Shown piece after piece: positions 2,359 to 61,998 of a DNA stretch of 64,000 nt (within the stretch, counting starts at the first letter, position 1; every line of letters starts with the position of its first letter). Both the position numbers and the translations under genes were made by a program. The notes under the pieces are model-generated. The model was given only the letters and a program-made list of their open reading frames with translations, was not told where the DNA came from and made no database searches. This DNA is from Bacteroidales bacterium (GTDB taxonomy: Bacteria > Bacteroidota > Bacteroidia > Bacteroidales > VadinHA17), in the NCBI GenBank assembly GCA_030596125.1, contig JAUVKT010000003.1:108-64107 (forward strand). The letters are read 5' to 3'.

Positions 2359-3861
2359 GTGGAGTATACTGTTAACATTATCTCATCAGATAAACGGAAA
2401 GCTGTTCGATGCCAGGCCGGAGATAACTTGCAAAAACTTATTAAGTCAAATGGTTTCTGGATTTATACCCCGTGCGGAGGTAAAGGAAAATGTGGTAAAT
2501 GCAGGGTAACACTGGCAGGAAAAGGATCGGTTACCTCCTGTCTTTACAATGTAAATGAAGATATTACTGTTATTCTGCCCGATAAAAGGGAGATGAGTAT
2601 TCTTTCAGGTCAGTATGAATCATCAATTGATGTCCCTTTATCGCCCGGAGATGATTCTCTGCTTGTTCCTGACCCGTTGGGTTTTGCCATTGATATCGGA
2701 ACAACTACGGTTGTATCACACCTTACAGACCTTACAGATGGTTCTGTTATTGCAACATGGTCGCACTTGAATCCACAATCGGTTCATGGAGCTGACGTTA
2801 TATCACGGATCAATTACTGTATGGACAAGCCCGAAGCCCTGCAGGAAATGCAGACAATGATAATTCAGTCTCTGAATGAGGTTATCAGCAAGGCAGCACT
2901 GATGCCCGGAATTGATTCAGACAGGATAACTAAATTTTCAATTGCAGGAAATCCTACTATGTTGCATCTTCTGGCAGCAGTTGACCCGAAAAGCATTGCT
3001 CTGGCACCATTTAAACCTGCTTTTACAGCATGCAGGATAATTCCGGCTGCCGATCTTAACCTGAATTGTAATAAGAAGGCAAATATTCATCTTTTGCCAT
3101 CAGTAAGCGGTTATGTGGGTGCTGATATAGTAGCTGGTATAGCCTCTGTTGATGATACTGAACTTAATTCATATCTGTATATTGATATCGGAACCAATGG
3201 TGAGATAGCTCTTGTTACAAGCGATAAGATATGGGCTTGTGCAACTGCGGCCGGACCGGCATTTGAGGGTGCTAACATCTCCTGTGGTTCAGGTGCTTTT
3301 GCCGGAGCAATAAGCAGATACAGCAGGGCAGGAGTGGGTACAATTGCAGATCAGAAACCTGTATCAATCTGTGGGTCCGGACTGGTAGATATTATCAGTT
3401 ATATGGTACAGGAATCTGTAATAACTCCCAATGGAAATTTGACTCAGCCATATATCGTATCCGGGAGCAAATCCAATGGCATTGATAGTGACATTGTAAT
3501 AACCCAACAGGATGTAAGGGAGGTGCAGCTTGCCAAGGGGGCTGTTGCTGCCGGAATATCCATTCTTTTGAAAAGATCCGGTTACTCCTTCGATTCAATA
3601 GATAAGCTTTTCCTTGCAGGTGGTTTTGGTAATTACCTGGATATTGACAATGCAATGCGTATCGGACTTCTTCCGGTTGAAATGTCCGGAAAGATTATTC
3701 AGATAGGGAATGCAGCAGGAACCGGAGCACTGCTTGCTCTTAAATCACAAAAACATGCAGATAATCTGAAAAGGGTAGTTGATAAAACAGATTATATTGA
3801 ATTATCCTACGAGGAGGATTTCGCCCTTGAGTTCGCTATGAACATGAGTTTCCACGAATAG
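2359..3861 (+). CDS. Corrinoid activation/regeneration protein (RACo/AcsV-like: 2Fe-2S ferredoxin plus ASKHA ATPase, DUF4445)
   Basis: 500 aa with a GTG start. The N-terminus has a plant-type ferredoxin motif (CGGKGKCGKCRV). DIGTTT and DIGTNGE phosphate-binding motifs mark an ASKHA fold. Confidence 0.75.
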   Translation: MEYTVNIISSDKRKAVRCQAGDNLQKLIKSNGFWIYTPCGGKGKCGKCRVTLAGKGSVTSCLYNVNEDITVILPDKREMSILSGQYESSIDVPLSPGDDSLLVPDPLGFAIDIGTTTVVSHLTDLTDGSVIATWSHLNPQSVHGADVISRINYCMDKPEALQEMQTMIIQSLNEVISKAALMPGIDSDRITKFSIAGNPTMLHLLAAVDPKSIALAPFKPAFTACRIIPAADLNLNCNKKANIHLLPSVSGYVGADIVAGIASVDDTELNSYLYIDIGTNGEIALVTSDKIWACATAAGPAFEGANISCGSGAFAGAISRYSRAGVGTIADQKPVSICGSGLVDIISYMVQESVITPNGNLTQPYIVSGSKSNGIDSDIVITQQDVREVQLAKGAVAAGISILLKRSGYSFDSIDKLFLAGGFGNYLDIDNAMRIGLLPVEMSGKIIQIGNAAGTGALLALKSQKHADNLKRVVDKTDYIELSYEEDFALEFAMNMSFHE

Positions 3862-39297: not shown

Positions 39298-39374
39298 GTC
39301 CCCGCCGAAGCGGGATCTTCGCTTCGCTTCGACTTTTGTCGTTTCCTGGTACCCGGCACCCGGTACCCGGTACC
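39298..39374. repeat. Short tandem repeat patch (CTTCGCT-type units, TTGTCGT, and GGTACCC/GGCACCC x4)
   Basis: Read directly: ...cttcgcttcgcttcgacttttgtcgtttcctggtacccggcacccggtacccggtacc. Confidence 0.85.
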
Positions 39375-39460
39375 TTTTCACTCCTGGTCCGTTAATTAAA
39401 CCCGATCTATCATGATTTTGAACAATAAATACTTTAACTTTATTGGAAAGTCATAAACAT

Positions 39461-40510
39461 ATGAATACAAAGATCAATCTTCTTCTGATCGAAGATTCTC
39501 CTGATGATGCAGAACTAATTCTGGATGAAATTAAGGGAGGGGGATTTGATCCGGTATGGACAAGGATCTGTACTGCTGAGGAGCTTAAGGAGATCTTGCC
39601 GGACCGTGAATGGGATATGGTTCTTTGTGATTACGTTTTGCCGGGTTTTTCAGGCCTTGAAGCCATAAAGATCATTAAGAGATCAAACCCTTTGGTTCCG
39701 GTAATTTTAGTTTCCGGACATGTGGGTGAAGATAAGGCAGTTGAAGCGATGCAATCAGGGGCATCCGATTATATACTTAAAGATAATCTTATCAGATTGG
39801 TACCTGCAATACAGAGGGAGATTTCCGAATACAAATCCCGGAAAATCGCATTTGACAGGGCTCAGAATCTGTCGAGACGCCTTGAGACGATAAGGGAGGA
39901 TGAGCGAAAAGAGATTGCAAAAAATCTTCATGATGATCTTGGACAAATTTTAACAGCCATAAAGATGGATCTTAGCTGGTTGGAGAAGAGAATTATTGTT
40001 AGTGATCCCCGGTTGAAAGATAAAATGACATCAATAAAGGAGCTTGTTGATCATTCTATTCAAACTGTTCAGAGATTGTCTTCAGACTTGCGACCCAGCA
40101 TACTGGATGACCTTGGCTTATTAGAGGCATTCAAATGGCAACTCGGTCAGTTTAGTGAACGTACAGGCCTTTCCCTGAAACTTGATCTCCCGGATAATGA
40201 TCCGGATCTGTTACCTGAACAGGCAGTTTCTGTCTTCAGAATTGTGCAGGAGGCACTGACCAATATTGCCAGGCATGCAGATGCCACTGAAGTTCAGGTA
40301 ACTATTCAAAAAAACAGAGAGGAATTTACGATCCTGATCAAAGATAATGGAAAAGGAATCTCAGACGAGCAGATCAATTCACCGGAATCATTAGGGATAA
40401 TGAGTATGAAAGAACGGGTGTTTCATTGGAACGGTAGAATCGTAATTTCAGGAAAAAAGGATAAAGGAACCAGCATTCAGATAAGATTTATGCTCCAAAA
40501 CAAAAGATAA
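39461..40510 (+). CDS. Receiver-domain-containing histidine kinase (REC plus HisKA_3 plus HATPase)
   Basis: LLIEDSPDD..LCDYVLPG receiver, H-box NLHDDLGQILTAIK and HATPase (NIARHA, DNGKGI). Confidence 0.8.
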   Translation: MNTKINLLLIEDSPDDAELILDEIKGGGFDPVWTRICTAEELKEILPDREWDMVLCDYVLPGFSGLEAIKIIKRSNPLVPVILVSGHVGEDKAVEAMQSGASDYILKDNLIRLVPAIQREISEYKSRKIAFDRAQNLSRRLETIREDERKEIAKNLHDDLGQILTAIKMDLSWLEKRIIVSDPRLKDKMTSIKELVDHSIQTVQRLSSDLRPSILDDLGLLEAFKWQLGQFSERTGLSLKLDLPDNDPDLLPEQAVSVFRIVQEALTNIARHADATEVQVTIQKNREEFTILIKDNGKGISDEQINSPESLGIMSMKERVFHWNGRIVISGKKDKGTSIQIRFMLQNKR

Positions 40511-40626
40511 AGCAAATATGTCAAAGGTCAGATGTCAAATGTCAAATGTGAAGAGCAAATATGTCAAAGGTCAGATGTCAAATGTCAAATGTGAAGAGTA
40601 AATATGTCAAATGTAGAATGTTGAGA
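40511..40626. repeat. Heptamer-based tandem array (ATGTCAA family), 43 bp super-unit x about 2.6
   Basis: The super-unit gcaaatatgtcaaaggtcagatgtcaaatgtcaaatgtgaaga recurs at 40512, 40555 and 40598. Confidence 0.9.
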
Positions 40627-40648
40627 GAAAAATTGTAGATTTAAGTGT

Positions 40649-41011
40649 ATGAAAAAACTAATAACAGAGAGATTTTTAGAGTTTGCAGCCATAATTGTTA
40701 AAATTGGAAAAAAACTTAACAAAACTTTTGAAGGCAGACATGTTTATGGTCAACTGTTTCGTTCCGGCACCTCTTCAGGTGCTAATTATGAAGAATCACA
40801 TTCTGCACAAAGTCCTCGGGATTTTATTCATAAAAGAGAAGTTGCATTAAAAGAACTTCGTGAATCTTTATTCTGGTTACGATTAATTGAGAAAGTAAAG
40901 TTTATACCTGAAAAAGACCCGGATTTAGTTTTTCTGTTAAAAGAAAATCAGGAGTTAATTAATATTATCGCAAAAGCAATTTCAACAATGAAGAAAAAAA
41001 ATAACATTTGA
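40649..41011 (+). CDS. Four-helix-bundle protein (23S rRNA intervening-sequence protein / Avd-like family)
   Basis: 120 aa. QLFRSGTSSGANYEESHSAQSPRDFIHKREVALKELRESLFWLRLI matches the family signature. Confidence 0.75.
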   Translation: MKKLITERFLEFAAIIVKIGKKLNKTFEGRHVYGQLFRSGTSSGANYEESHSAQSPRDFIHKREVALKELRESLFWLRLIEKVKFIPEKDPDLVFLLKENQELINIIAKAISTMKKKNNI

Positions 41012-41175
41012 CCTTTAACATTTGCCATCATACATTTGCCATTTGACATCATACATTTGCCATTTGCCATTTGCCATCATACATTTGACCTTTGACTTTT
41101 GACATCATACATTTGCCATTTGACCTTTGACATCATACATTTGCCATTTGCCATTTGACATCATACATTTGCCAT
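41005..41175. repeat. Heptamer tandem array (CATTTGC/CATTTGA/CCTTTGA/CATCATA), inverted relative to 40511-40626
   Basis: About 24 consecutive heptamers, read directly. The array starts inside the last codons of the four-helix-bundle ORF and ends 6 nt before the response regulator ATG. Confidence 0.9.
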
Positions 41176-41180
41176 ATATA

Positions 41181-41807
41181 ATGACTCGCTTTCTTATCAT
41201 AGACGATCATCCCATTGTGCGGAAAGGCCTTCGGCAGACACTCGAAGAACTACCCGGTGTAATTAAAATTACTGAAGCAGGTGATTCTCATGAAGGACTC
41301 AGGGTATTTCGGGATTGTGATTTTGATGTGGTATTGCTTGACATCAATCTTCCGGGAAAGAGCGGATTTGAAATACTTGCTGATATGAAATCAATGAAAC
41401 CGGACATACCGATATTGATCATCAGCATGTATCCTGAAGAGCAATATGCAATCAGGGCATTGAAGTCCGGAGCATCGGGTTACCTGACAAAAGCAATGGC
41501 AGCAGATGAGTTGCCTGTTGCAATACGAAAATTGACTTCAGGAGGCAAATATATCACCCCTTCTATTGCAGAAAAGATAGTTAATGGTTTTGATTCGCCA
41601 GGTCCAAAACATGATTTGCTTTCAAACAGGGAATTTGAGGTAATGATCTGTATTGCAAAAGGAAAGCCAATTAAGGAGATAGCATCCATGCTCTCAGTAA
41701 GTGAAAAGACAGTAAGCACTTATCGCAGCCGGATACTTGAAAAAATGGATATGCAATCAAATGCCGATATTGTTAAATATATGATCCGGGAGAATTTGAT
41801 CGATTGA
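41181..41807 (+). CDS. NarL/LuxR-family response regulator
   Basis: Receiver (LIIDDHPIVR, LLDINLPG) plus LuxR HTH (LSNREFEVMICIAKGKPIKEIASMLSVSEKTVSTYRSRI). Start trimmed out of the repeat array. Confidence 0.85.
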   Translation: MTRFLIIDDHPIVRKGLRQTLEELPGVIKITEAGDSHEGLRVFRDCDFDVVLLDINLPGKSGFEILADMKSMKPDIPILIISMYPEEQYAIRALKSGASGYLTKAMAADELPVAIRKLTSGGKYITPSIAEKIVNGFDSPGPKHDLLSNREFEVMICIAKGKPIKEIASMLSVSEKTVSTYRSRILEKMDMQSNADIVKYMIRENLID

Positions 41808-41827
41808 GTACTACCTGATTCGACCAC

Positions 41828-41896
41828 AACCTGTAAACCTGTAACCTGTAACCTGCAACTTGCAACTTGCAACTTGCAACTTGCAACTTGCAACTT
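41828..41896. repeat. Heptamer tandem array (CCTGTAA x3 then CTTGCAA x6)
   Basis: Read directly: aacctgtaaacctgtaacctgtaacctgcaacttgcaacttgcaacttgcaacttgcaacttgcaac. Confidence 0.9.
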
Positions 41897-42056
41897 TCTT
41901 CTTCTTCCTACTCCATACTTGTCAGGATTTCCCTACACCAAAATCAGGCTTCCCCGACAACCTATAGCACTCAATTCTTACATCCCGATTAAAAGGTATG
42001 GCATATCTTGCATAAGAAATTATTTCTCTGCAACAGAGTAGCGTAAACAATATTAT

Positions 42057-43991
42057 ATGAAACAGATGAAAAAACTAGTTAATATTTTAATGATTGAAGA
42101 TTTTCAGGATGATGCAGAACTGATAAGCTTTGAACTTGACAGGGGAAAAATTGATCATAAGATCACCAGGATCTGGGAAATTGATAAACTGGAAGATGAG
42201 CTTCAAAAACTGGTTTGGGACCTGGTCCTTTGTGACTATTACCTTCCGGGATTTAACGGGGCTGATGCGATAAGAATTATTCGGAAAAAAAGGCCCGATT
42301 TACCAATCATCCTTGTATCTGGAATGGTAGGGGACGAAAAGGCCGTTGAAGTTATGAAACTGGGAGCCAGGGATTATATTCTTAAAGACAATCTAAATCG
42401 TCTGATCCCTGCTGTTAAAAGAGAAGTTTATGATTTTAAACTACGGCAAACTCACTTAAATACAGAGAAAGCACTTGAGATACAGACTTCCCTTTCCCAG
42501 GTTTTCATTGATCATATTCCTGCCAGTGCCAGGCTTGTTGAGAAGAAAACTTATAGGGTATTATCAGCAAACAATTATGCACTGAAACATGGCACTATTC
42601 CGGGAAAGAAGTGCTATGAGTACAATCCTGGACAGAAAGAGCCATGCCCCAATTGTAAACTACATGATTTAGGAGAGGGGAACCGACACATTAATGCTGA
42701 GTCAAAAGAAAATGGAGATACCTATGATGAACATTGGGTAAATATAGATGAAAACCTGGCCCTTCATTACACCTTTAATATTACTGAAAGGAAACAATCT
42801 GAAAAAGAACTCATACAGGCGAAAGAGGAGGCAGAGGAGTCTGATCGCCTGAAATCAGCATTTCTTTCAAATATGTCACATGAGATCAGAACTCCAATGA
42901 ATGCTATTATTGGGTTTACCCAGATACTGAAAGATAATACGATAACAGATGATGAGCGGAATTCTTATATTGAGATTATTGAGCAGAGCGGAAACAACAT
43001 GCTGAATCTTCTTACAGATATTATAGAGTTTTCGCGTTTAGAGTCCGGAGACTATAAATTGAATAATGAAGAATTCCAGGTTGAAAAGTATATTGAGGAC
43101 CTGTTTGACCGGTTTAATAATGAATTGAAATTGAAAAACGAAAAGGATCTGCAACTCAGTCTTTCAAAACCTGAAGGCGATCAAATGGTTGTACTGAATC
43201 AGGATAAGAGTTGCCTTACCCAGATTTTGAACAGCCTGTTTCAAAACGCAAAGAAATTCACAAACCGGGGATCTATTGAGATTGGTTTCGAACTAATTGA
43301 AAAAGAGATTCGTTTTTATGTTAAGGACACCGGAATTGGTATTGAAAAGGAAAAACAGGAGATAATTTTTCAGCGATTCCGTCAGGTTGAAGAAGAAAAA
43401 ACAAGAACTTATAGTGGGGCAGGCCTTGGCCTGGCAATATCAAATAATATATTAGAGATCATGGGGAGTAAAATCTGGGTAGAATCTGAGTATGGAACCG
43501 GATCAACATTCTATTTTACACTTCCGGTTTACCGGATTGATAAAACTTCACATCCGGAGCATGCTGAATCTTCCGGAGAAGATCATGGTCAGGATACCCC
43601 TTTAATGTTAACCGGTAAAATAATCCTGATTGTTGAAGACGAAATTACAAATTACCTGGTTTTGGAAAATTTCCTGCAGAAATATAACCCCGAAATTCTT
43701 TGGGCCAAAAATGGTGAAACTGCCATAGATATTGTACATAGCAGGAAAGATATAGATCTGATTCTGATGGATATCCGGCTTCCTGGCATTGATGGAATGC
43801 AGGCCACCCGGACTATTCGCCAATTCAATACTAATATTCCTATAATTGCCCAGACAGCTTATGCATTACAGGAAGATATTGACAGAGCTTTCGAGTCTGG
43901 GTGTGATGATTTGATTACAAAGCCAATCAACTTTGAATTATTGATTGAAAAGATGCAAGTTTTTCTTTGCGTCTCTGCGTCTTTGCGGTAA
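42057..43991 (+). CDS. Hybrid sensor histidine kinase (REC, Cys-containing sensor region, HisKA, HATPase, REC)
   Basis: The N-terminal receiver is paralogous to that of 39461-40510. H-box SHEIRTPMNAIIGF, then GAGLGLAI and a C-terminal receiver (LIVEDE, LMDIRLPG). The last 9 codons lie in an octamer repeat. Confidence 0.8.
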   Translation: MKQMKKLVNILMIEDFQDDAELISFELDRGKIDHKITRIWEIDKLEDELQKLVWDLVLCDYYLPGFNGADAIRIIRKKRPDLPIILVSGMVGDEKAVEVMKLGARDYILKDNLNRLIPAVKREVYDFKLRQTHLNTEKALEIQTSLSQVFIDHIPASARLVEKKTYRVLSANNYALKHGTIPGKKCYEYNPGQKEPCPNCKLHDLGEGNRHINAESKENGDTYDEHWVNIDENLALHYTFNITERKQSEKELIQAKEEAEESDRLKSAFLSNMSHEIRTPMNAIIGFTQILKDNTITDDERNSYIEIIEQSGNNMLNLLTDIIEFSRLESGDYKLNNEEFQVEKYIEDLFDRFNNELKLKNEKDLQLSLSKPEGDQMVVLNQDKSCLTQILNSLFQNAKKFTNRGSIEIGFELIEKEIRFYVKDTGIGIEKEKQEIIFQRFRQVEEEKTRTYSGAGLGLAISNNILEIMGSKIWVESEYGTGSTFYFTLPVYRIDKTSHPEHAESSGEDHGQDTPLMLTGKIILIVEDEITNYLVLENFLQKYNPEILWAKNGETAIDIVHSRKDIDLILMDIRLPGIDGMQATRTIRQFNTNIPIIAQTAYALQEDIDRAFESGCDDLITKPINFELLIEKMQVFLCVSASLR

Positions 43992-44753: not shown

Positions 44754-44796
44754 GGATAGGCAGTAGGCAGTAGGATAGGCATAAGCGATAAGCGCT
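44754..44796. repeat. Heptamer patch (GGCAGTA / GATAAGC units)
   Basis: Read directly: gataggcagtaggcagtaggataggcataagcgataagcgc. Confidence 0.8.
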
Positions 44797-44830
44797 TGAT
44801 TATAACATGAAAAGTATTGTTAGAAAAATA

Positions 44831-44937
44831 CATTTGCCATTTGCCATTTGCCATTTGACTTCATACATTTGACTTTTGACATCATACATTTGACATAAAA
44901 TTTGACCTTTGCCATTTGACATCATACATTTGACATA
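44831..44937. repeat. Heptamer tandem array (CATTTGC/CATTTGA/CATCATA family), third locus
   Basis: Same unit family and orientation as 41005-41175. Confidence 0.9.
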
Positions 44938-49493: not shown

Positions 49494-49537
49494 GAGGAAG
49501 TATGTAGTATGTAGTATGTAGTATGTAGTAGGAAGCC
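49494..49537. repeat. Heptamer tandem array (AGTATGT x4)
   Basis: Read directly: gaggaagtatgtagtatgtagtatgtagtatgtagtaggaagcc. Confidence 0.9.
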
Positions 49538-61928: not shown

Positions 61929-61998
61929 GCAGTCGGCAGTCGGCAGTCGGCAGTCGGCAGTCGGCAGTCGGCAGTCGGCAGTCGGCAGTCAGCAGTCC
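61929..61998. repeat. Heptamer tandem array (GCAGTCG x8 plus 2 variant units)
   Basis: Read directly. Confidence 0.95.

Follow-up and report, generated by a model that had tools for sequence, protein, structure and literature searches.

The window (the whole 64,000-nucleotide stretch of Bacteroidales DNA that was analysed) carries a kinase-regulator operon with an unusual block in its spacer. The upstream host gene lies at 39443-40510 on the forward strand, from the open reading frame list. Pfam finds a receiver domain, HisKA_3 and HATPase_c in its product, so it is a hybrid NarL-type kinase. An alternative start is possible at the ATG at 39461. A homology search found one kinase orthologue at 89% identity (P0122) and another that is 100% identical counted from the 39461 start (P0121). 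The downstream host gene, at 41181-41807 on the same strand, encodes a NarL/LuxR-type response regulator with Response_reg and GerE domains in Pfam. The preliminary description had placed a kinase gene that stops at 40510 and a NarL-type regulator gene that starts at 41181 on either side of an insert, and the open reading frame list and Pfam agree with it. Its kinase call stands for the kinase itself, but the N-terminal receiver domain has to be added to it. The genes around the block encode redox enzymes, a sigma factor, kinases and PAS proteins.

The block consists of two repeat arrays, which we call arms, with a single ORF between them. The kinase stop codon directly adjoins the 5' arm, a purine-rich array of ATGTCAA-type heptamers at 40511-40631 on the forward strand (Tandem Repeats Finder, repeat search and fold). 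This arm is 121 nt long. Tandem Repeats Finder reports 13.6 copies of ATGTCAA at period 7 over 40518-40614, as well as a 43-nt superunit present 2.3 times at 98% identity. A spacer at 40632-40648 on the forward strand leads from the arm to the ATG of the ORF. It contains TAGATTTA, which has one mismatch to the Bacteroidetes -7 box. The 3' arm, at 41004-41175 on the same strand (Tandem Repeats Finder, inverted repeats and fold), is a pyrimidine-rich CATTTGC/CATTTGA array with CATCATA units. It is 172 nt long, with 22.6 copies of ACATTTG at period 7 and a 28-nt superunit present 5.1 times at 90% identity (Tandem Repeats Finder). The layout first proposed, a left array, the ORF and a right array of reverse-complement units, is correct in outline. 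However, the arms are not pure heptamer runs. Both are compound and include GGTCAG, GTGAAGAG and CATCATA units. The right array also overlaps the end of the ORF: it begins 8 nt within it, and the TGA stop falls in the first array unit.

The two arms can pair with each other. There are 64 inverted pairs between them. The longest spans 55 nt and is 73% complementary; another, of 33 nt, is 85% complementary. When 40495-41190 is folded as RNA the arms come together in a single long stem with interruptions, and the ORF occupies its loop. This fold has a minimum free energy of -176.9 kcal/mol, whereas dinucleotide shuffles give -134.1 +/- 5.1 (z -8.4), and 0 of 20 shuffles equal it. The suggestion that the arrays can pair into a long stem around the ORF is borne out by this fold. 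The arrangement of arrays and ORF in the window is confirmed to be far above chance. Rfam gave no match, to rRNA or to another known RNA, at the gathering threshold in the whole 64-kb window and none at E<=1 over 40300-42100. A scan for intrinsic terminators found none between the kinase gene and the ORF.

The ORF itself (40649-41011, forward strand) encodes a four-helix-bundle protein of 120 aa from the 23S rRNA IVS protein / S23p / Avd superfamily. It matches Pfam PF05635, 23S_rRNA_IVP, with an E-value of 1e-12 (48.7 bits, cut-off 33.8), and NCBIfam TIGR02436, "four helix bundle protein", with 6.6e-21 (74.6 bits, cut-off 24). The product also matches PDB 2RLD by sequence (E 3.9e-21), whose crystal structure has five chains. 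An AlphaFold monomer model has a pLDDT of 95.4 and four helices, at residues 2-23, 27-51, 56-83 and 91-119. The best Foldseek matches for this model are 2RLD (TM 0.80-0.88), 2GSC (TM 0.74-0.82) and the Avd protein of diversity-generating retroelements (DGRs). All of this agrees with the family that had been read from the sequence, a four-helix bundle like the IVS and Avd proteins. Helix 2 carries a conserved polar stripe (Q35, R38, S42, N46 and E49). The dN/dS of the ORF against its relatives is 0.08-0.14, and it is 0.05-0.14 over all comparisons, which shows that the protein is under purifying selection. The family is large, with 12,902 clusters at 50% identity matching the profile. PHROGs and PADLOC have no match for the protein, and among 2.9 million viral contigs there is a single weak one.

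The 3' arm has a second property. Five tandem matches to TTTG-N19-21-TAnnTTTG were found inside it by pattern scan (41007-41171, forward strand). They face the regulator gene, and the last -7 box is at 41164-41171. The strict Bacteroidetes promoter consensus has 8 matches in the 64 kb, counting both strands, and 7 of these fall in the 3' arm and in a solo array further downstream. TAnnTTTG alone shows no enrichment over the window, with 31 and 27 matches on the two strands where about 31-32 are expected on each. Near gene starts outside the arrays the -7 box is weakly enriched, with 5 observed and ~1.4 expected. These motif matches suggest that the 3' arm may act as a promoter for the regulator gene, a reading that is limited to TTTG-containing units in Bacteroidota. 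There is also a perfect sigma-70 match, TTGACA-16-TATAAT, at 41155-41182. It was set aside because it overlaps the regulator start codon and the host is a member of the Bacteroidales.

The solo array lies at 44830-44936 on the forward strand (Tandem Repeats Finder and sequence), 3.8 kb from the ORF-bearing block. It is of the 3'-arm type, with CATTTGA/CATTTGC and CATCATA units, and it has neither an ORF nor a partner arm. The preliminary description had listed it at 44831-44937 as a third array of the same family and a possible solo remnant; it may be a remnant or an independent array. Its end is followed after 21 nt by a PAS-protein gene (44958), and it contains two promoter-consensus matches. 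A tblastn search of the 64-kb window found no second copy or remnant of the four-helix-bundle gene.

It is worth considering what the site looks like in relatives. In L082 the kinase is 89% and the regulator 88% identical to ours, the spacer is 43 nt and the cassette of gene and arms is absent. Since the orthologous pair has this 43-nt spacer only, the cassette is an insertion/deletion polymorphism, and the first description of the block as an insert was right. A closer relative (L092/L093) has the cassette at the identical site with an ORF that is 98% identical. The left array there is one superunit shorter and the right array is reorganised, and the 40632-40648 spacer has diverged from L092 despite the 98% identity of the ORF. 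Comparing the filled with the empty site reveals no visible target-site duplication. A 72%-identical kinase (L081) was dropped from the comparison. An Rrf2 gene comes next in that case rather than the regulator gene, so it is uninformative on insertion.

Related copies of the gene are found at many other sites. The copy at 91% identity (L001) is located after rpe, the one at 87% after a VTT/DedA gene, and the one at 81% between cheW and cheR. Others are within cas operons and helicase-methylase operons. The Bacteroides copy (a BT_0352 homologue; PDB 2RLD) lies between araD and araA, and this type has (TTGACAA)4 and (TTGTCAA)4 as its flanks and a stem with a z of -4.6. Several sets of orthologous loci retain the cassette in place over a dS of 0.2-0.9, which is more what one expects of a stable resident than of an active parasite.

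We surveyed related loci from more than 15 phyla, bacterial and archaeal. An inverted match score of at least 14 between the flanks is reached at 68 of 79 loci, against 9 of 79 for a direct-orientation control. Whether other copies are also flanked by inverted arrays had been posed as a check on the original proposal; most of them are, and these 68 loci are joined by plasmid and Bacteroides copies. Inverted period-7 flanks are likewise present around cyanobacterial, Treponema and Chlorohelix plasmid copies. The best period is 7 or 14 in 81 of 87 upstream flanks and 80 of 87 downstream flanks. Within 300 nt of the gene, stringent heptamer arrays are ~24 times as dense as in the rest of the same loci.

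The unit itself is not constant; the loci hold 40 unit classes. ATGTCAA is found near the closest relatives, AAATGCA, AAATAGA and AAATGGA near others, and GTCGGAG, GTGATTA and AATCCCC near distant ones. Planktothrix and Nostoc copies are flanked by arrays of AATCCCC/AATCGTA, AATTCAA and GTCGGAG. Each locus nevertheless tends to match itself: the upstream unit is at most one base from the reverse complement of the downstream unit at 41 of 79 loci, against 20% of non-cognate pairs. The pairing energies of the arms are -52.6 kcal/mol for cognate pairs, -39.3 for non-cognate pairs and -35.1 for shuffled ones, and the cognate pair is better at 73 of 83 loci. Left and right arms cross-paired among orthologous loci show no cognate advantage because orthologues have identical units.

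The cassette also has a direction. Its 5' arm is purine-rich at 45 of 48 loci, its 3' arm is pyrimidine-rich at 40 of 43, and the upstream neighbour gene is co-oriented with the cassette gene at 66 of 72 (92%). It has no conserved partner gene. At most 7 of 80 loci share a neighbour, and all of these are syntenic sets. Among 80 related loci, and among the neighbours in the window, there is no conserved transposase, integrase or reverse transcriptase. The gene and its arms travel together into unrelated sites without a partner gene. There are exceptions to the layout. A few loci are one-armed or have direct instead of inverted flanks (L060, L086), and self-contained "empty" hairpins lie beside some copies (L011/L012/L014, L087, L067 and L074). 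About one locus in 8 has a contig end inside an array.

The archaeal carriers deserve separate mention. Loci from the Methanosarcinales and Methanophagales (L050, L052, L053, L066 and L069) have the identical architecture. Most archaea are not known to have RNase III, so this enzyme cannot explain the layout everywhere. Inspection of the archaeal stems by eye recognised no bulge-helix-bulge motif.

Two measures of selection on sense-strand RNA disagree. By RNAduplex the sense strand gives the more stable duplex at 48 loci and the antisense strand at 29 (p 0.003). In DNA-level alignments the arm mismatches are G.U-compatible in 57 cases and A.C in 60. Without a G.U excess, the mismatch test gives no indication of selection for sense-RNA pairing over DNA-level maintenance. 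The purine/pyrimidine asymmetry of the arms, the co-orientation and the sense-duplex stability all favour a role at the level of the transcript.

Several known systems resemble the cassette in part. The intervening sequences (IVSs) of 23S rRNA in Coxiella burnetii, Leptospira and others share PF05635, an ORF in the loop of a stem and a sporadic, insertion-like distribution. In Coxiella the ORF is preceded directly by 2-3 tandem GACAGAT heptamers, in a number that depends on the strain, and the first of them is where RNase III cuts (PMC4990558). The 40511-40631 array has the same position immediately 5' of our ORF, and the link to rRNA IVSs that was drawn from the geometry is upheld by these heptamers preceding an ORF of the same family. 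However, the rRNA copies sit in helix 25 or 45 of 23S rRNA and ours sits between two protein genes of an operon. The arms in the window are long compound arrays of 121 and 172 nt. The Coxiella ORF seems to be untranslated and decaying (PMC4990558), whereas ours is under purifying selection.

Avd shares the four-helix-bundle superfamily fold. It is pentameric and binds RNA stem-loops, and distal flanking segments of the RNA pair in the DGR particle (10.1101/2023.10.23.563531). Yet it belongs to a separate sequence clade, with about 14-16% identity in structural alignments, and the window copy, unlike a DGR, lacks a reverse transcriptase as well as a template and a variable repeat, and viral contigs give next to no match for it. 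Dispersed heptamer repeats are also known: GGGAATC in Xanthomonas (70-75 convergent pairs), STRR-type repeats in cyanobacteria and TAACTGA in the Beggiatoaceae. These are 7-nt tandem repeats, mostly intergenic and sometimes in convergent pairs that could form a stem-loop, but they are described without an enclosed gene and with no mention of the four-helix-bundle family (PMC4692102, PMC4679880). REP/REPIN elements with RAYT, and MITEs, are intergenic too and have a gene between short inverted repeats, with the repeat also occurring solo or in hairpin doublets. Our protein, however, is a bundle of helices, 120 aa in all, in which no nuclease or transposase fold can be recognised, and the arms are tandem arrays of lineage-specific units rather than one conserved palindrome. 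An insertion sequence or MITE would differ further: the cassette has no transposase nearby and no target-site duplication, and its arm units vary between copies.

We argue, with confidence a little better than even, that the window holds a non-ribosomal IVS-type cassette, a gene with complementary heptamer arms, that was inserted in the spacer of a kinase-regulator operon and lives in its mRNA. We infer each of co-transcription, stem formation and cleavage. The cassette would lack a dependable promoter of its own and rely for its transcription on read-through from the kinase gene. In the transcript the arms would pair into ~100 bp of double-stranded RNA, a stem drawn tight around the ORF. By analogy with the rRNA copies RNase III may act on this stem. 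The cut would free the ORF-bearing RNA and separate the messages of the kinase and the regulator. The protein, presumably a pentamer, would probably bind the structured RNA of the stem, as its relative Avd does in DGRs. In this Bacteroidales host the 3' arm could restore transcription of the regulator gene by serving as five tandem Bacteroidetes-type promoters. Slippage in the arrays would alter arm length quickly.

One could go further and suppose a class of selfish cassettes across prokaryotes in which rRNA IVSs are a minority, whose pentameric protein reads the heptamer arrays, as a duplex or as strands, in much the way that Avd reads structured RNA, and which is the source of the dispersed heptamer repeats that have lacked an explanation for decades. 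The cyanobacterial STRRs, the Xanthomonas GGGAATC pairs and the solo arrays of the window would then be its products. We consider this wider scenario unlikely.

Other scenarios have to be weighed. The arms could be terminal inverted repeats that bound a non-autonomous mobile DNA element, with the RNA stem a by-product. A host or trans-acting recombinase, or recombination between dispersed arrays, would move or copy it. The filled and empty orthologous sites, the close relatives at unrelated sites, the solo arrays and "empty" hairpins and the mismatches without a G.U excess all fit this scenario, and contigs that end inside arrays are what dispersed repeats predict. On the other hand, the loci have no conserved transposase, integrase or reverse transcriptase close by, and no target-site duplication is visible. 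Arm asymmetry and 92% co-orientation are unexpected for symmetric DNA ends. Unit sequences vary so widely that no single recombinase site is conserved. We regard this scenario as improbable. It is slightly less likely still that the encoded pentameric protein binds the heptamers as a TRAP-type ring would, each subunit taking one unit of single-stranded RNA or DNA. Complementarity would then be secondary, and the protein would regulate itself or nucleate a particle and might act on solo arrays too. This would account for a 7-nt period that is conserved while the unit sequence changes, for units that follow protein relatedness and for the solo array of the same unit 3.8 kb away. The family forms pentamers, as the five chains of 2RLD indicate, Avd binds RNA and the polar stripe on helix 2 is conserved. 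However, a strongly conserved protein surface would have to serve about 40 unit classes, and simple binding-site arrays do not need locus-specific inverted complementarity.

Two further scenarios remain. NarL-family regulators recognise heptamers, so the arrays might be host regulatory sequence independent of the ORF, either sites for the NarL-type regulator or phase-variable promoter repeats. The five promoter-consensus matches do face the regulator gene, array length varies between close relatives and the genome has further intergenic heptamer arrays. Against this, the gene lies between such inverted arrays in dozens of unrelated contexts without two-component genes, the arrays are enriched beside it, and 43 nt of spacer are enough for the orthologous kinase-regulator pair to work. 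Given the cross-locus survey, host regulation as the primary explanation is largely refuted and we hold it to be very improbable. A decayed DGR, of which the Avd-like accessory gene alone is left, would explain why the fold is like Avd (4DWL and 8UB7; TM about 0.63-0.71). We give this next to no credence. There is no reverse transcriptase or template/variable repeat near the window copy, and none recurs near its relatives. PADLOC, PHROGs and the viral contigs speak against it as well, and the closest structures, 2RLD and 2GSC, are of the stand-alone S23p type.

The IVS-type cassette that we favour would matter beyond this operon. We found no function assigned to the family outside the DGR branch, and in the non-subscription literature that we searched nothing links the family to heptamer arrays outside rRNA. 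A package of gene and inverted arrays outside rRNA, spread across many bacterial and archaeal phyla, has apparently not been described before. The layout common to most copies that we examined, with inverted period-7 arrays, a purine-rich arm first and operon co-orientation, gives the family a testable context. It links the ORF-bearing rRNA IVSs with the heptamer repeats of cyanobacteria, Xanthomonas and Bacteroidota, and with puzzling copies of the gene in operons for two-component signalling, sugar utilisation and chemotaxis and in cas operons. Where the gene has been reported as "CRISPR-associated", the reason may be that it was inserted there and not what it does. An experimental system is at hand in the Bacteroides araD-araA copy that matches the crystal structure 2RLD. 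It must be noted for annotators that gene callers run the ORF into the arrays, which creates false N-terminal repeats, and that assemblies break at the heptamer arrays.

The interval between the kinase gene (receiver, HisKA_3 and HATPase_c domains; stop at 40510) and the NarL/LuxR-type regulator gene (start at 41181) is 670 bases long and has three parts. The 5' arm is an array of ATGTCAA-type heptamers (40511-40631; 2.3 copies of a 43-nt superunit). It is followed by a four-helix-bundle ORF of 120 codons (40649-41011), whose stop codon lies within the 3' arm, an array of CATTTGC/CATTTGA heptamers (41004-41175; 5.1 copies of a 28-nt superunit). The arms are reverse complements in many registers, with 64 inverted pairs joining them. 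The RNA folds into a single long interrupted stem made of both arms with the ORF enclosed, and its minimum free energy is -176.9 kcal/mol versus -134.1 +/- 5.1 for shuffles (z -8.4). The inverted pairs and this z-score mean that the arrays around the ORF are real and not due to chance. The long stem with the ORF in its loop, proposed in the preliminary description, is what the fold gives.

That description also took the block to be an insert, and a relative without it bears this out. On the metagenomic contig L082 a kinase and a regulator, 89% and 88% identical to the window's, are separated by a spacer of only 43 nt, whose sole content is three or four degenerate ATGNNNN heptamers. The heptamers ATGTCTA, ATGAAAA and ATGAATT (L082 1232-1274) line up with the first part of the window's 5' arm. 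They may represent a proto-array or a scar left by an element since lost. Two close relatives from other samples (L092 and L093) match the window here, with the same 3' end of the kinase gene and, at this site, an ORF copy that is 98% identical. In both, the left array is shorter than the window's by one superunit and the right array is reorganised, although the ORF has hardly changed, which argues that the arrays change much more quickly than either the ORF or the host gene. Fast turnover is likewise reported for the heptamers of the 23S rRNA intervening sequence (IVS) of Coxiella (PMC4990558). The next closest ORF relatives occupy unrelated sites. The 91% identical copy is downstream of rpoD-like and rpe genes, the 87% copy is downstream of a VTT/DedA gene, and the 81% copy is in a cheW-cheR interval. 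The 91% copy, from a Rikenellaceae genome bin (L001 3001-3351), has an ORF of only 101 codons yet its protein match reaches residue 117, so it is possibly nonsense-mutated.

Both PF05635 (23S rRNA intervening sequence protein) and TIGR02436 (four helix bundle protein) match the ORF product above their curated thresholds. AlphaFold models this protein confidently (pLDDT 95.4) as four long helices, so the family assignment originally made from the sequence alone holds. The top structural matches of the model are, in order, 2RLD, 2GSC (Xanthomonas Xcc0516) and Avd, the accessory protein of diversity-generating retroelements (DGRs). A profile of the window protein and 25 relatives matches PDB 2RLD (Bacteroides thetaiotaomicron BT_0352) at E 3.9e-21. 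Among relatives 23 positions are invariant, including a polar stripe on helix 2 (Q35, R38, S42, N46, E49). The dN/dS against relatives is 0.05-0.14, which argues for a functional protein. PADLOC and PHROGs have no match to it. The N- or C-terminal extensions often present in database gene calls of this family are false; they are heptamer arrays translated in frame. Three database proteins (P0257, P0344 and P0016) have terminal extensions with a 7-residue period (SEVRTEK..., NVERRTS..., MSDVKGQMSN...). P0344 has an identical peptide at both ends, which implies that the arrays there are direct and not inverted.

As far as we have found, the window copy belongs to a widespread and apparently undescribed package. 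One scan of a species-representative genome collection gave 584 relatives, and the best 80 were kept. The bacterial hosts of these 80 are Bacteroidota, Ignavibacteria, Nitrospirota, Desulfobacterota, Chloroflexota, Planctomycetota, Acidobacteriota, Latescibacterota, Marinimicrobia, Omnitrophota, WOR-3 and Zixibacteria; the archaeal hosts are Methanosarcinales and Methanophagales. Reading the flanks gives the same order almost everywhere: upstream gene, purine-rich heptamer array, ORF, complementary pyrimidine-rich array, downstream gene. Among the best 80, the best inverted flank match scores at least 14 in 68 of 79 loci versus 9 of 79 for the direct-orientation control, so other copies of the ORF are mostly flanked by inverted arrays too. 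The best period is 7 or 14 in 81 of 87 upstream and 80 of 87 downstream flanks. Under stringent criteria, the density of heptamer arrays within 300 nt of the gene is about 24 times that in the other 369 kb of these loci. Cognate arms pair at -52.6 kcal/mol, compared with -39.3 for non-cognate and -35.1 for shuffled arms, and the cognate pairing is better in 73 of 83 loci. There are about 40 unit classes, and the reverse complement of the downstream unit is at most one base from the upstream unit in 41 of 79 loci versus 20% of non-cognate pairs.

More distant plasmid homologues (31-50% identity) have the identical arrangement with quite different units: AATTCAA and GTCGGAG in Nostoc, AATCCCC/AATCGTA in Planktothrix, GGTGAAA/GCGGAAA in Treponema, GTGATTA x17 in Bernardetia and ATGAAGG in Chlorohelix. 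A Bacteroides homologue 98% identical to 2RLD lies in the araD-araA interval of the arabinose operon (L101 2436-2932). Its arms, (TTGACAA)4 and (TTGTCAA)4, pair as a stem of about 31 bp (z -4.6), and copies of this type are a ready experimental system. There are exceptions: one locus (L060) has no left arm and another (L086) is flanked by direct repeats.

Several loci depart from the simple layout in other ways. In three orthologous Bacteroidales loci (L011, L012, L014) the gene sits between two self-contained hairpins and not in the loop of one big stem. These hairpins (in L012, at about 2850-2960 and 3390-3500) are about 100 nt long and nearly identical, and each combines a left-type with a right-type array. 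Locus L030 has nested double arms of two left and two right arrays, and "empty" array hairpins adjoin the gene in L087 (upstream flank), L067 and L074. Such loci suggest that array pairs without a gene occur as units in their own right. In an archaeal copy (L053) complementarity runs past the arrays into unique sequence, GCTCAAAAT ... ATTTTGAGC, as an outer stem. About one in eight loci has a contig end near the gene. In L001, L002, L003, L005, L014, L018, L021, L034, L042 and L046 it falls within about 250 nt of the gene, in or next to an array, which suggests that the arrays recur elsewhere in those genomes and break short-read assemblies.

It is worth considering how such a unit might act. 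No neighbouring gene recurs at more than 7 of the best 80 loci, and then only in small syntenic sets, and there is no reverse transcriptase or transposase near the window copy. This argues that the unit consists of the gene and its arms alone. Upstream neighbours are on the element's strand in 66 of 72 loci and downstream neighbours in 59 of 74, with median gaps of about 100 nt and 87 nt, respectively. The cassette occupies a spacer between genes and is oriented along the reading direction of the host operon. This fits expression by read-through, which would place both arms in one transcript. The stem closes 0-20 nt from the start of the protein match and 2-34 nt from its end. One can imagine that the arms act at the DNA level, or that they are arrays of protein-binding units; either may be true, and both are compatible with an RNA stem. 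However, symmetric DNA ends do not need a purine/pyrimidine asymmetry, and, read on the gene's strand, the 5' arm is rich in purines in 45 of 48 loci and the 3' arm in pyrimidines in 40 of 43. From co-orientation, asymmetry, stem closure and the Coxiella and Avd precedents we infer that the arms would form double-stranded RNA within a read-through transcript, that RNase III, where present, would cut this duplex, and that the four-helix-bundle protein probably binds arm RNA.

Tests for selection on the sense RNA gave two different answers. By duplex energies the sense RNA is more stable than the antisense in 48 loci versus 29 (p 0.003), but in DNA-level arm alignments G.U-compatible mismatches are not in excess (57 versus 60 A.C). 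To our knowledge RNase III is absent from most archaea, and the archaeal copies retain their arms, which weakens the RNase III step. In several orthologous sets the element has stayed where it is over dS 0.2-0.9, so it does not look like a restless parasite.

The direct published precedent for arm processing is the Coxiella IVS, where tandem GACAGAT heptamers precede an ORF of the same family and RNase III cuts at the first heptamer (PMC4990558). The window element would work like such ORF-bearing IVSs, whose layout it has, but it is not in rRNA. The suggested IVS link stands for kind and not for location, and the preliminary description was largely right overall. Avd binds an RNA stem-loop, and in the DGR particle the RNA stretches that flank the template pair with each other (10.1101/2023.10.23.563531). 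The window protein has this fold, but all DGR parts are absent from the element. The arms are of the same kind as the heptamer tandem repeats of cyanobacteria, Xanthomonas and Beggiatoaceae. Those of Xanthomonas include 70-75 convergent pairs, and the heptamer-repeat papers do not mention the four-helix-bundle gene family (PMC4692102, PMC4679880). The literature we searched, subscription literature excluded, has no description of this architecture outside rRNA. An earlier report found 18 genes of this family inside cas loci and read them as functionally linked to CRISPR-Cas. Two surveyed copies are in cas loci (a cas2-cas1 interval, on the opposite strand, and a csx2-cas1 interval) and two more are between helicase and N6-methylase genes. 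These four are from plasmids of Anabaena cylindrica (L084) and Pseudanabaena (L086) and from Chlorohelix (L089) and Planktothrix (L090). Their placements look like the same insertion habit, and the published association may reflect a landing site of the cassette rather than a common function.

The 3' arm has five tandem matches, directed toward the regulator gene, to the Bacteroidetes consensus known from Bacteroides promoters, whose use in this genome is weakly supported. A solo array of the 3'-arm type (44830-44936) has two more, and together they make up 7 of the 8 strict matches in 64 kb. Those in the 3' arm could make up for the break in the operon. The end of the 3' arm (41155-41182) also has a perfect sigma-70 consensus (TTGACA-16 nt-TATAAT, 12/12), which probably does not matter in a Bacteroidales host. 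The -10 box of this consensus shares bases with the regulator ATG, so transcription would begin inside the regulator gene.

Heptamer arrays are a general habit of spacers in this genome. Unrelated units make up (GCAGTCG)x9.9 between convergent ORFs (61929-61997), (AGTATGT)x4.6 directly past a stop codon (49499-49530), (TAGGCAG)x2.6 (44757-44774) and (GGTACCC)x3.9 (39348-39374). Another array, (AACCTGT)x4 running into (AACTTGC)x7, starts 21 nt past the regulator stop codon (41828-41896) and ends about 160 nt upstream of the next kinase gene (42057); its unit is nearly self-complementary (CAACTTG versus CAAGTTG). Four neighbouring PAS-domain proteins (ORF starts 43967, 44958, 46457 and 49571) have N-termini of the kind (M)ENRDKTKTREQLL and similar coiled-coil C-termini, and are a tandem paralogous sensor family. 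The solo array is directly upstream of the second of these genes.
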